A DNA stretch of 64,000 nt, from the NCBI GenBank assembly GCA_963663385.2, contig CAXXXD010000002.1, positions 448,001 to 512,000 of the forward strand, read 5' to 3'. Below are positions 60,664-64,000 of the stretch, in pieces. Position 1 is the stretch's first letter, and each line of letters begins with the position of its first letter. Under the pieces are notes generated by a model, which was given only the letters and a program-made list of their open reading frames with translations, did no database searches and was not told the origin of the DNA. The position numbers and the translations under genes are program-made. This DNA is from Oceanispirochaeta sp. GTDB taxonomy: Bacteria; Spirochaetota; Spirochaetia; DSM-2461.

Positions 60664-62166
60664 ATGGCTAGATATATACTGAGCGTGGATTTGGGAACGA
60701 CCAGTACGAAAACCGTTCTTTTTGATGAGAAACTGAAGGTGAAAGCTTCTGCAAAGGCAGAGTATCCTACTATATTCCCCCGCCAGGGATGGGCTGAGCA
60801 GGATGCGGAGCACTGGTGGGACGCCCTGATCTCTACTACAGCGGAAATCCTGAAGGAGAGCGCCGTTGATCCTTCGGAAATTGTCGGGGTAGGGGTGGAT
60901 TCCATGTCCAGTATGGCTCTGCCTGTGGATAAAGGGGGCAAACCCCTCAGAAACGGTCTTCTCTGGCTTGACCGGAGAGCCGAACAGGAATCCGCCTGGA
61001 TACGGGAAAACTACCGGGATTTACAGATTCGTATAAACAGTAATGATTCGGATCCTTCCAATTTTGCGCCCAAAATTCTCTGGATAAAAAATAACGAACC
61101 CGAAATCTATGAAAAAACGGATAAGTTCCTTCACTGCAACGGGTACCTGAACTACCGTCTGACCGGAAAAATGACAATGGATATTTCCGAATCGGGTATG
61201 TCCCAGCTCTGCGATATCCGGACGGGACAGTGGTCGGACGAGCTGATCCGGGCCAGCGGCATCAACCGGTCAAAACTGCCTGAAATATCTCTCTGTACAG
61301 ATATCATCGGAACGGTTACTGCCGAAGCAGCGGCTCAGACAGGCCTGAAAGAGGGAACTCCCGTTATTGCCGGAGCTATGGATAATGTCTCCGCCACTCT
61401 GGGACTGGGGCTGCGTAAAGACGGGCAGGCCTATATCTCCGCGGGAACAGCAACCAATGCGGGAGTCTGTGCTTCTTCCGTTCCCGCCGATCCCGGTATG
61501 CTCAACTATCATCACGGTGTCCCCGGACTCTACCTGGTAAACGGGGGAGTGGATTACGGGGGGGCAGGGCTTCGCTGGTTTAAAGCGCTAATCGAAGAGG
61601 AGCGTTTTGAAGTGATTGACCGTCTGGCCGGGGAATCGGGTTATCTGGATGATGTGCTTCTTTATCTGCCCTATATGATCGGACAGCGGGCTCCCCTCTG
61701 GGATCCCCATTCCAGAGCCGTCGCTTTCGGTATGAATCCGGATACCGACCGGAAAGCTATGATTCGAATGGTTATGGAAGGGATCGCTCTTGGTGTTAGG
61801 AACGTTTTCCAGATGATGGAAAACGACGGATATGCCGTTGAAGATATTGTAATGACCGGGGGGTGTGCCAACAGTCCCGTATGGACACAGATTTTTGCGG
61901 ACATCCTGGGCAAGCCTGTCATCCTTCCGGGAGAGATGGATGTAGCCCCTCTGGGAACAGCCATTATGACTGCTGTCGGCGTGGGGCTATACCCCGACTT
62001 TGATGCCGCCCTGGACGTTCTGACCGTACGGGCTTCCCATGATCCGGATAGAGAGAAGGGAGGGTATTACGATGCTCTTTTTAAGGCATTTGTCAATTTA
62101 TATAAGGCTGTCGGCCCGGTCTACAGGGAACTGGATGATATCAGGACAGAATTCCAGGGGAAGTAA
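60664..62166 (+). CDS. FGGY family carbohydrate kinase (xylulokinase-like)
   Basis: 'VDLGTTSTK', 'WAEQD', 'WLDRRA', 'YLPYMIGQRAP.WD', 'GGCANS..WTQIFAD'. Confidence 0.93.
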   Translation: MARYILSVDLGTTSTKTVLFDEKLKVKASAKAEYPTIFPRQGWAEQDAEHWWDALISTTAEILKESAVDPSEIVGVGVDSMSSMALPVDKGGKPLRNGLLWLDRRAEQESAWIRENYRDLQIRINSNDSDPSNFAPKILWIKNNEPEIYEKTDKFLHCNGYLNYRLTGKMTMDISESGMSQLCDIRTGQWSDELIRASGINRSKLPEISLCTDIIGTVTAEAAAQTGLKEGTPVIAGAMDNVSATLGLGLRKDGQAYISAGTATNAGVCASSVPADPGMLNYHHGVPGLYLVNGGVDYGGAGLRWFKALIEEERFEVIDRLAGESGYLDDVLLYLPYMIGQRAPLWDPHSRAVAFGMNPDTDRKAMIRMVMEGIALGVRNVFQMMENDGYAVEDIVMTGGCANSPVWTQIFADILGKPVILPGEMDVAPLGTAIMTAVGVGLYPDFDAALDVLTVRASHDPDREKGGYYDALFKAFVNLYKAVGPVYRELDDIRTEFQGK

Positions 62167-62276
62167 GTACCGGAAATCAAGTACTAAAGTAACTTACGGT
62201 TTTTTGAATTCTTATTGAGAATTACAGATACAGGAGGAATGATAAAAAGTCTTCATAGGCTTGTGGATTGATACAA

Positions 62277-62434
62277 TGTTCTAAACATCGTTTAGAACAG
62301 CCAGGTTACTGTTCGCCATTTTTACTGGTCTCCGAGACCGTACAGGAGAATGAAGAGCCGTGACCGAAACATTCAATGGTCTTCGAGACCGGATAGGAGA
62401 ATGGAATCAATTCACCGTACAGGCGCTGTTTTAG
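62277..62434 (+). ncRNA. Putative IS110 bridge RNA
   Basis: 10-bp hairpin 62277-62299, then two repeated GGTCT-N3-AGACC hairpins flanked by segments matching the target and donor junctions; boundaries approximate. Confidence 0.7.
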
Positions 62435-62451
62435 GCAATAGGAGCGAAGGT

Positions 62452-63564
62452 ATGAAGATGAGTATCGGAGTGGATCTGCACAAATCCCAGTTAACAGTCT
62501 GTTTCCTGAGTGATGATAGAAGCATTTGTGAATCAGGAATGTATCCGACCTCTGAGGACGGTTACAGAGCATTTCTTGAGAAAGCAGTGTCCTATACAGA
62601 AGAGGGCCTTGATGTTAGGGCTGCAGTGGAATCAACAGGAAATGCCCGGTTCTTCCGTAACAAGCTATTGCTAGCAGGGATTGAGGTGGTGGTTGTGAAT
62701 ACACTGAAATTCAAAGTTGTAAATGAATCAGTGAAAAAGACGGATAAGCATGATGCCAGAACTCTAGCAGAGTTCTTGGAAAAAGATATGCTTCCCGAAT
62801 CACAGCTTTGTTCTCAGGAGAGTGAGGATATCCGTAGAGTTCTTAAATCCAGAACTATCCTTGTTAAATCAGTCGTATCTTTGAAGAATCAGGTTCACGG
62901 ACTGCTTCTAGGGTATGGAATTGAAACAAAAAGAGCTGCGCTGCAGAGTAAAAAAGAAAGGCAGCGCATCCTCATCGGTCTCGTGGACCATAGGAGTTTC
63001 GGAAGCGCTGCCAAAGCGATAGAACCGCTGCTTTCTACGATAGATCAGGTTTCGAACCAGGTCAAGCAGTTAGAGATAGTCCTGCTGGAACTTGTAAAGG
63101 AAGATGAGGATGTACAGTTATTGCAGACGATCCCGGGAGTCGGATTGATAACGGCATCGACTATTAGGGCCTATACGGATGATATCAAGCGGTACGCCAG
63201 TGCCAAGAAGTATTCGGCTTATGCCGGTCTTGTACCATGGGTGCAGAACTCCAATGAGACGATTCATCATGGGCATATAACAAAGAGAGGGGCTGTAGAA
63301 CTGAGAACGGCATTTGTTCAGTGTGTTATGGGAATGGTTAGAACTCGGAAAACGACTGGCAATTACCGTATCATGACGAAGTACAGAGCGATGAAGAAGA
63401 ACAAGGGCAGCGGCACGAGTATTATCGCCTCTGCAAGAAAGATGAGTACGGTAGTGTACTCCATATTGAAAACCCGTGAACCCTTTGATCCGTTGAAGAT
63501 GGTTCCGGATGATAAGTACTTGAAGATGCAGGCGGCTGCATTCAATGCCGTAAAAACTGGGTAA
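62452..63564 (+). CDS. IS110 family DEDD recombinase/transposase
   Basis: 'IGVDLHK', 'AVESTG', 'KKTDKHDA'; C-terminal 'TIPGVG', 'YAGLVP..QNS', 'HITKRG'; GGAG 7 nt before ATG 62452. Confidence 0.95.
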   Translation: MKMSIGVDLHKSQLTVCFLSDDRSICESGMYPTSEDGYRAFLEKAVSYTEEGLDVRAAVESTGNARFFRNKLLLAGIEVVVVNTLKFKVVNESVKKTDKHDARTLAEFLEKDMLPESQLCSQESEDIRRVLKSRTILVKSVVSLKNQVHGLLLGYGIETKRAALQSKKERQRILIGLVDHRSFGSAAKAIEPLLSTIDQVSNQVKQLEIVLLELVKEDEDVQLLQTIPGVGLITASTIRAYTDDIKRYASAKKYSAYAGLVPWVQNSNETIHHGHITKRGAVELRTAFVQCVMGMVRTRKTTGNYRIMTKYRAMKKNKGSGTSIIASARKMSTVVYSILKTREPFDPLKMVPDDKYLKMQAAAFNAVKTG

Positions 63565-63625
63565 TCCGGTTCAATTGTAAGCTTGTTAATAGGCTTATGA
63601 TTGACTTTTTATAGGAGTAAAAAAT

Positions 63626-64000
63626 ATGAAAGCAGCCGTATTATACGGAGATAACGACATCCGCTTTGAAGAGTGGGAAAAGCCCTCAGCCGGTCCCGGC
63701 GAGGTTCTTGTTAAAGTAAAAGAGTCCGGTTTGTGCGGTTCTGATATCCCCCGGACCATACACAGCGGTGCTCACTTCTATCCCATCGTTCTGGGGCATG
63801 AGTTTTCCGGTGAAATCGTAGAAGTCGGCGAAGGTGTAACCGCCAGAAGTGTGGGTGACAGAATTGCCTGTGTTCCCCTTATTCCAGACAGGAACGATCC
63901 CCAGAGCCAGAAGGGAAACTACTCCCTCAGCAAGGGTTACAAGTTTATCGGTTCCCGGGTTCAGGGGGGATGGGCGGAATATGTTTCCATGCCCTGGGAG
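63626..64000 (+). CDS. Zn-dependent polyol dehydrogenase (galactitol-1-P / sorbitol dehydrogenase-like); runs off the window
   Basis: Manual translation MKAAVLYGDNDIRFEE...SGLCGSDIPR...YPIVLGHEFSGEIVEVGEGV. Confidence 0.9.
   Translation, partial: MKAAVLYGDNDIRFEEWEKPSAGPGEVLVKVKESGLCGSDIPRTIHSGAHFYPIVLGHEFSGEIVEVGEGVTARSVGDRIACVPLIPDRNDPQSQKGNYSLSKGYKFIGSRVQGGWAEYVSMPWE

Follow-up and report, generated by a model that had tools for sequence, protein, structure and literature searches.

A probably RNA-guided IS110-family insertion sequence of Oceanispirochaeta that targets and rebuilds Shine-Dalgarno sequences

Two groups of elements within the IS110 family of insertion sequences are known to use guide RNAs. 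Elements of the IS110 group have a long left end, a short right end and an RNA encoded upstream of the recombinase, and their subterminal inverted repeats measure 2–3 bp as against 7–17 bp in the IS1111 group (PMC11208160). Guides are carried in reversed order by IS1111-type as compared with IS110-type seekRNAs (Siddiquee et al. 2024, PMC11187229), and in the published model for IS1111-type elements a circle with a junction promoter is formed (PMC11187229). Here we analyse a 1381-bp insertion sequence (62237..63617, one copy of the core being counted at the right end) that lies near the end of a 64,000-nt stretch of the genome of Oceanispirochaeta sp. (contig CAXXXD010000002.1; hereafter the window, with all coordinates referring to its plus strand). 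We regard it as very probably an active, RNA-guided IS110-family element which has a bridge (seek) RNA with two loops encoded in its 5′ non-coding region and which both targets Shine-Dalgarno (SD) sequences and restores them.

The element separates a host SD sequence from its start codon. On its left stands TACAGGAG (62229..62236), which comprises the SD as left target together with the AG core (62235-62236) that is common to the right end. The left end opens with GAATG (62237..62241), the predicted right donor half-site, and the right end closes with ATAGGAG (63611..63617), the predicted left donor half-site plus core and the SD that passes to the downstream gene. Over the right junction the sequence reads TATAGGAG (63610-63617), TAAAAAAT and ATG (63626-63628). 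A perfect subterminal inverted repeat of 10 bp stands 5 nt from either end; its left arm ATAAAAAGTC (62242..62251) was found by a repeat search to be 100% complementary to the right arm GACTTTTTAT (63603..63612).

Ten full-length copies are present in the window's own genome (5.3 Mb, four contigs), nine of them one base and one of them two bases off the window copy (identity 99.9–100%). In all ten the left flank ends in AGGAG (ACAGGAG in eight, TACAGGAG in six), the right flank consists of 6–8 nt followed by ATG, and the element is co-oriented with the gene downstream. Each of the ten downstream open reading frames (ORFs) has Pfam domains that begin at the N-terminus, the products being a dehydrogenase, an H+-pyrophosphatase, a chemoreceptor, GDPD, GNAT and URO-D-like proteins, a hydrolase, a GFO/IDH/MocA oxidoreductase, an acyl-carrier subunit and one protein with a domain of unknown function that is barely over the cut-off. 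AG occurs at both junctions in 10/10 copies, which is consistent with sequence-specific insertion over a short core common to target and donor, and the element is devoid of terminal inverted repeats. That this core has 2 nt rests on two relatives (L040 and L061) whose target and donor share just 2–3 nt before the left end; inside the shared AGGAG of the present element the exact boundaries are not fixable from sequence alone. Short-read contigs from three studies contain a unitig spanning 62232-63617 at roughly 8–10 times the depth of the flanks, with the flanks of other copies as its loose ends. It begins five bases early because AGGAG is common to every left flank.

The left flank was searched for in 41 genomes (40 relatives and the window's own), 12 of which matched, and the locus was fetched for nine congeners (G001–G009). 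In every one of them the dehydrogenase gene comes straight after the kinase gene, without the element, and the intergenic spacer of 24–90 nt holds AAGGAG or GAGGAG 5–7 nt before the start codon. An empty allele, which the initial annotation of the window had called for, thus exists as an empty orthologous site in 9/9 congeners; these sites have diverged and are not the identical allele. At a threshold of at least 99% identity the element was found only in the window's genome among the 41 searched, and relatives at 71–75% DNA identity occur in two further genomes, with one and six copies, respectively. The restriction to a single genome fits a recent arrival followed by a burst of transposition.

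The transposase gene (62452..63564) encodes 370 amino acids and has its own AGGAG at 62440-62444. With 215 nt before its ATG and 53 nt after its stop codon, the element has a long left end and a short right end. The product matches PF01548, the N-terminal DEDD/RuvC-like domain, over positions 1–153 of 155 (E 1.6e-20), PF02371, the C-terminal transposase domain, over positions 2–82 of 87 (E 4.6e-19), and the NCBIfam model NF033542, 'IS110 family RNA-guided transposase', over positions 2–343 of 343 (224.8 bits; curated cut-off 140). Its closest solved structures are those of the IS621 and ISCro4 transposases, aligned mainly over the C-terminal domain. In the C-terminal motif GLVPWVQNSN the serine aligns with S of 'ESG' in IS621 and with T of 'STG' in IS4321, the next residue being N and not G. 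The window copy has T at 63077 where nine other copies and the read-based consensus have A, which turns a lysine in the coiled-coil portion of the protein into isoleucine. In each of three DNA runs one contig joins unrelated sequence at 63085, within the element; this joint may reflect a bubble around the variant at 63077 or a truncated copy.

The structure of the guide RNA was derived by aligning 29 non-coding regions, taken from the left end up to the ATG of the transposase gene, and computing an RNAalifold consensus. A conserved structured core (62263..62415) is closed by a long-range stem (62263-62267 with 62411-62415), in which up to 11 sequences have changed on both sides at one pair. 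It contains a 5′ stem-loop with a perfect 10-bp stem (62277..62299), which reading of the alignment by eye locates at the same place in each relative, though misaligned. The target-binding arm that follows (62304..62365) is built from a basal stem GGUUAC/GUGACC (62304-62309 with 62360-62365 in the RNAalifold consensus), an internal loop and a hairpin, GGTCT-CCG-AGACC in DNA letters (62327-62339). A second hairpin, GGUCU-UCG-AGACC (62378..62390), belongs to the donor loop; here up to 13 sequences have changed on both sides at one pair. Overall, compensatory changes are seen in 12 of the 26 consensus pairs, and the single-sequence fold of the region has a z-score of −2.5. The IS110-family identity, the ends and, in the 5′ non-coding end, a guide RNA with two loops, all proposed initially from the window sequence, are thus borne out by copies and relatives.

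Some further features of the RNA region were recorded. The hairpin regions 62326-62347 and 62376-62398 are both 77–78% complementary to 62969-62991 within the transposase gene, which may be chance or pairing within a long transcript. In-frame ATGs lie at 62350, 62401 and 62452 with a spacing of 51 nt, each behind AGGAG and the first two within RNA loops. Longer transposase isoforms arising from the non-coding region were considered and rejected, because the frame is not conserved in relatives.

Each of the two loops is predicted to expose one guide per DNA strand. In the target loop the 5′ strand UUUUUACU (DNA TTTTTACT; 62319..62326) serves as putative right-target guide, being complementary to core and right flank (AGTAAAAA) on the top strand, and the 3′ strand UACAGGAG (62341..62348) is the left-target guide, which is identical to left flank plus core and would pair with the bottom strand. 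In the donor loop the 5′ strand CAUUC (62370..62374) would act as right-donor guide by pairing with the first bases of the left end, and the 3′ strand AUAGGAG (62393..62399), identical to the last seven bases of the element, as left-donor guide. All strings and coordinates listed in the initial annotation were located where it had placed them. TACAGGAG occurs twice in the 64-kb window, at the left flank and at 62341-62348 only, a count that is unremarkable given a mean of 1.5 in shuffled sequences and at least two occurrences in 40 of 100 shuffles. What decides the case lies outside the window, in the ten genomic copies and the independent short-read unitig.

Comparison of sequences across families shows covariation between guide and DNA partner for two of the four guides, and a third is invariant along with its partner. 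The left-target guide has an effective length of 7 nt. In 26 families the own guide matches the flank at a rate of 0.78 as compared with 0.37 for guides of other families at position −7, and of 0.95 versus 0.63 at position −6; positions −8 and −9 are without signal. In 20,000 permutations at family level the observed sum was never attained (p about 5e-5), a value that overstates independence as the families are related to one another. Individual cases illustrate the trend: guide UACAGGAG stands against flank ACAGGAG in the window element, UUUAGGAG against T(A/T)TAGGAG in a Spirochaetia relative with 15 copies, UUAAGGAG against TAAGGAG in five of six Marispirochaeta flanks, CAAAGGAG against CAAAGGAG in three elements of Desulfobacterota type, and UUCAGGAG against TCAGGAG in a congener.

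Complementarity between the right-donor guide and the element's first five bases holds in 26 of 29 relatives. Where the left end varies, complementarity persists in nine of 12 cases, six of these being strict Watson-Crick, as in the end/guide pairs GTATG/CAUAC, GCACG/CGUGC and GCATG/CAUGC; GAGCG/CGUUC includes one wobble. CATTC, which had been put forward as a match to the circle junction with the reservation that it might pair intramolecularly, is therefore best understood as a donor guide, since it covaries with the first five bases of the element. The left-donor guide ATAGGAG is invariant in 29/29 RNAs and the right end TATAGGAG is likewise conserved in relatives, an invariance that is consistent with pairing but uninformative on covariation. 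More weakly supported is the right-target guide, for which an enrichment within this genome speaks. Its match is complete (8/8) in two copies, the one in the window included, and occupied sites agree with TAAAAA at 3.8 of 6 positions on average, compared with 1.93 at 176 free, SD-positioned ACAGGAG sites and 1.59 at 1277 other free sites. Of the earlier proposal that both target guides match their flanks, the part concerning the left flank therefore holds, with SD flanks in 10/10 copies and a guide that covaries across families, whereas the match of TTTTTACT to the right flank is an enrichment confined to this genome.

The pattern extends to a wide range of relatives. A scan with one genome per species yielded 76 loci encoding them. 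A closer clade with 51–78% protein identity comes from assemblies labelled Spirochaetia, Marispirochaeta, Alkalispirochaeta, Treponema, Leptospira, Desulfobacterales, Gracilibacteria, WWE3, Dehalococcoidales and Dysgonamonadaceae, and its ends read G-N3-GATAAAAAG on the left and TTGACTTTTTATAGGAG on the right. A second clade with 32–39% protein identity (L072-L085, L067-L070, L079 and L084, from Lentisphaeria, Victivallales and a Clostridia metagenome-assembled genome (MAG)) has different ends, ATGGTATGATAAATA ... ATCATAGGAG, which also lie between xAGGAG and an ATG 5–9 nt further on; the 3′ strand of its first loop reads GAAAGGAG or GUUGAGGAG, in agreement with its flanks. In the closer clade, AGGAG closes 50 of 54 left junctions, and 32 of the 54 match their own guide at 7/7 positions. 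For the two clades together, a start codon 3–12 nt on opens an ORF of at least 50 amino acids at 61 of the 73 right junctions with enough flank, and seven more have an ATG at a fitting distance with an ORF that is shorter or cut (output read by eye). The targeting of SD sequences and the supply of AGGAG by the right end, as anticipated from the window alone, are thus found in copies and relatives alike.

Exceptions to the start-codon pattern include L039, with its tandem remnant of a right end, copies that have degenerated, and a single element from Leptospira (L061). The latter, from a Leptospira MAG, combines the guide UUGAGAG with the site TTTAGAG behind a terminator-like hairpin and has no start codon near; judged by guide and site, it is a case of natural retargeting away from the SD. 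In L039 two right ends follow the transposase gene in tandem, each ending ACTTTTTATAGGAG. As the rebuilt SD is itself a near-target, repeated insertion at one site, or the leftover of such an event, seems likely.

We propose that AUAGG plus AG of the donor loop would pair with the right end of the element and CAUUC with its left end, and that recombination at the shared AG would place the element between SD and start codon, always reading as the gene does. Since the right end closes in ATAGGAG, the gene would retain an SD at an unchanged distance from its ATG, and we infer that it is left translatable. By analogy with published models, the joined ends of a circle would form a promoter composed of TTGACT, 17 bp and TGaTAAAAA. 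Its parts were read by eye: a −35-like box TTGACT (63601..63606), kept in the right ends of nearly all relatives, and an extended −10-like box TGATAAAAA (62240..62248), which would follow TTGACT after 17 bp in the predicted circle and whose GATAAAAA is conserved across 29 relatives. Junction promoters have been reported for ISEc21 and ISEc11 (PMC11187229) and for IS621 (PMC13626964). Excision of an integrated IS621 copy needs read-through transcription into the left end (PMC13626964), which offers a rationale for co-oriented insertion into 5′ leaders: by landing co-directionally just behind an SD, the element would be assured of read-through transcription. The integrated copy would be transcribed by host read-through, and the downstream gene would still be expressed after insertion. 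No promoter firing outward from the right end was found when that end was inspected by eye and computationally. At the window locus specifically, the host flank contains TTGAGA 17 bp before AATGAT of the left end (62215-62243), a promoter-like match over the left junction.

Several observations weigh against an SD-specific, RNA-programmed element of this kind. Position by position, no covariation between right-target guide and right flank was detected in 24 families at 14 registers, own and foreign guides having equal match rates at all 14. The right-flank match is also weak taken alone, because AGTAAAAA is frequent in the 64-kb window (14 matches). The target loop begins with an invariant CAU that might recognize the start codon: the register that places it on the ATG, given a 6-nt spacer, has the highest match, yet this is equal for guides of other families, and the same CAU also pairs with AUG inside the RNA. 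When copies were removed in silico, the ranking of sites favored the guides at its top, where sites with a full match score of 14/14 were occupied in 2/2 cases and those at score 13 in 1/12; the figures below were 1/71 at 12, 1/606 at 11, 4/3243 at 10 and 1/12,525 at 9. Thousands of non-SD sites with scores of 9–11 of 14 are, however, free, and free ACAGGAG sites with at least three of six right-flank matches are SD-positioned in just 51 of 326 cases. Genome-wide, 12% of ACAGGAG and 11% of AGGAG sequences are SD-positioned, yet all eight occupied ACAGGAG sites are, which speaks for SD targeting. Guide complementarity alone, as scored here, fails to explain this strict position or the near-total pattern in relatives, so that selection or a further determinant must act; an A-rich spacer, leader DNA that is rich in AT and opens easily, or the ATG could contribute, as could selection against intragenic insertions. 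Moreover, on one Spirochaetia MAG chromosome (L011-L024 and L029) nine of 15 left flanks fit the donor guide better than the target guide: they read TATAGGAG, the element's own donor half-site, and not TTTAGGAG of the target guide. Donor-like flanks of this kind may represent a 'half-match' use of the donor loop, a mode of recognition described for IS621 in a 2026 preprint. Several sites on this chromosome follow a repeated hairpin (CCYGCATCCATGCRGG) and then a T-run. Rfam gave no match to the RNA at E values up to 1, and a look for RNA runs containing 62100-63700 returned none. Four DNA runs kept as contigs contained no circle junction and no joint across the element, a result that is uninformative given that contigs drop rare forms. 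Finally, a hairpin followed by CTTTTTAT at the right end (63571..63604; fold −17.7 kcal/mol, z −3.2) resembles a terminator directly before the rebuilt SD, and transcription of the downstream gene could be cut off there.

How strictly the RNA dictates the position is the point on which a first alternative differs. The guide might set only about 7 nt (ACAGGAG), with purifying selection producing the start-codon position: intragenic insertions would be lost, and insertions at SDs would survive since the SD is rebuilt and transcription reads through. A covariation signal confined to −7 to −1, a right flank that does not covary across families and the 1277 free ACAGGAG sites outside the SD position are all in keeping with it. 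So is the distance to the ATG (6 nt at five occupied sites, 7 nt at three and 8 nt at two), which follows the natural distribution of the genome with its mode of 6 and, at these ten sites, gives no sign that the ATG is recognized. We nevertheless consider this explanation unlikely. Copies that are 99.9–100% identical point to a recent burst, and many genes of a 5.3-Mb genome should bear disruption for a while; yet 0/10 copies are intragenic, and almost no intragenic cases exist among the 73 right junctions in relatives. Occupied sites furthermore surpass free SD sites in right-flank match (3.8 versus 1.93 of 6).

Another alternative accepts the guides and concerns the right end, whose AGGAG may be kept for recombination or promoter spacing and not for translation; the hairpin and T-run would then silence the gene and the 'rebuilt SD' would be a by-product. 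The terminator-like structure at 63571-63604 followed by CTTTTTAT suits such a role, and several relatives (L042, L044 and L057) have, by eye, a compact GC-rich stem ending TTGAC directly before TTTTTAT, with the look of a canonical terminator. Pairing alone could also explain why left-donor guide and DNA partner are both invariant. The other donor half-site, by contrast, varies freely in step with its guide (12 variants in 29), which suggests a constraint on ATAGGAG beyond pairing. If the gene were silenced, an insertion at an SD would be as harmful as one in a coding site, and some other cause would have to account for the strict SD position. On balance a mere by-product appears somewhat less probable still than the effect of selection. 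That the transposase protein reads AGGAG directly, the RNA matches being coincidental or serving as ribosome-binding sites of longer isoforms (ATGs at 62350 and 62401), is very improbable. The three in-frame ATGs behind AGGAG are compatible with it, and AGGAG itself is nearly invariant and thus without covariation; against it stand the covariation of positions −7 and −6 with the RNA segment, that of the right-donor guide with the left end, and a conserved fold with compensatory pairs. Upstream of the transposase ATG the frame is open for 1–58 codons and closed before the first loop in most of 28 relatives. We therefore favor an RNA-guided element that targets and restores SDs.

At the window locus the host gene upstream of the element (60664..62166) encodes a sugar kinase of the FGGY family with the Pfam domains FGGY_N and FGGY_C. 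Downstream, the right target with its spacer TAAAAAAT leads into a gene for a zinc-type alcohol dehydrogenase that runs past the end of the window (63618..64000). ADH_N begins at residue 23 of the part inside the window, the full ORF of 348 amino acids contains ADH_N and ADH_zinc_N, and orthologues in congeners use the same ATG as start codon.

Neither the enzyme family nor the RNA principle is new, and both the reversed guide order and the targeting of SDs have been described before. What appears to be new is their combination in a widespread clade, together with co-orientation and restoration of the SD. Full-text searches of the literature yielded no bridge or seek RNA that encodes an SD and no element end that restores one, although a target logo could escape this search in two supplementary files of PMC11187229 that were unreadable; the available part of a 2026 preprint clustering bridge RNAs globally does not mention SD-encoding guides. 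It is tempting to speculate, without our putting the chance quite at even, that a deep lineage of bridge/seek RNAs, spanning two clades with just 34% protein identity between them, from Spirochaetia to Clostridia, has fixed the SD both as programmed target and as donor end. Elements of this lineage, labelled Spirochaetia, Desulfobacterales, Gracilibacteria, WWE3, Dehalococcoidales, Dysgonamonadaceae, Lentisphaeria/Victivallales and Clostridia in the assemblies, might practise a near-neutral, co-directional 'translation-start homing' in which they are transcribed by read-through and hand the SD back, with a hybrid layout and an origin independent of IS900.

A guide RNA that encodes the SD would provide a sequence-level mechanism for the old observation that some IS110-family elements settle on translation start signals. 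It would also represent a natural bridge-RNA system in which target and donor share five bases beside the core and the right end restores the split signal, and hence a ready-made design for inserting cargo before genes with translation signals kept. The clade may further serve as a natural setting in which to study 'half-match' recognition, the order of guides and the direction in which strands are exchanged. For annotation it forms a widespread and easily recognized class, with G-N3-GATAAAAAG at the left end and TTGACTTTTTATAGGAG at the right end, 5–9 nt before an ATG.

A precedent for this choice of site is IS900 of Mycobacterium avium subsp. paratuberculosis, also of the IS110 family, which likewise inserts between ribosome-binding site and host start codon; the comparison made here covers insertion motif and layout. 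A 1997 article by Doran et al. reportedly bears the title 'IS900 targets translation initiation signals'. On the gene strand the IS900 motif reads AAGGAGA-N6-CATG, with the insertion point directly 3′ of the SD as in the element described here. Written on the transposase strand it is CATGNNNNNNTCTCCTT (PMC8141618), the reverse complement of SD-N6-ATG, which means that IS900 lies antiparallel to the gene whereas the present element is co-oriented. IS900 also carries a long antisense ORF (hed), which has no counterpart here, the longest minus-strand ORF overlapping the element having 88 amino acids. In the literature searched we found neither a guide RNA analysis nor a report of SD restoration for IS900.

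Like IS621, the element encodes an RNA with two loops in its long left end, ahead of the recombinase. Each loop has a guide for either DNA strand around a core of 2 nt (AG here, which on the other strand is CT as in IS621), and the two elements belong to the same Pfam and NCBIfam families. It differs in its 10-bp subterminal inverted repeat, as compared with 2–3 bp in the IS110 group, in its remote transposase (71 bits, 26% identity, 17% gaps) and in its target, an SD instead of the repetitive extragenic palindromic (REP) sequence of IS621; moreover, left target and left donor share AGGAG. The guide order is also different. In the IS621 copy of E. coli W, which we read directly, AUCGGGCCU stands 5′ and GUAG 3′ in the first loop, with flanks ATCAGGC-CT ... 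CT-AC, so that the strand-identical guide precedes the complementary one, an order also given in the text of PMC11208160. In the present element the top-strand match is 5′ and the bottom-strand match 3′ in both loops (UUUUUACU before UACAGGAG, CAUUC before AUAGGAG). The inversion relative to IS621 that had been suspected from the window is therefore confirmed, and it corresponds to the order already published for IS1111-type seekRNAs.

Elements of IS1111 type with seekRNAs (ISEc11, ISKpn4, ISPa11; IS4321/IS5075) resemble the element in their DEDD transposase, their subterminal inverted repeats and an RNA in which the segment complementary to the top strand precedes its bottom-strand counterpart. 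The IS4321 transposase aligns with 80 bits and 31% identity over 237 amino acids with few gaps. By eye, no clear RNA motif in common was seen in the region downstream of the IS4321 transposase gene. Unlike IS1111 elements, in which the RNA is usually encoded downstream in a long right end, the present element has it upstream of the transposase gene, as do rare IS1111 exceptions with an upstream non-coding region such as ISMtsp17 (PMC11187229). Its transposase is also longer (370 as compared with 330–350 amino acids) and has the motif GL-P----SN, not S/T-G. BLASTP scores of 80 bits to IS4321 and 71 bits to IS621, with 60.5 bits between these only two named references, do not decide between the IS110 and IS1111 groups. 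We place the element in the IS110 family, broadly defined, and describe its layout there as a hybrid, combining guide order and subterminal repeats of IS1111 type with the upstream RNA position of IS110 type.

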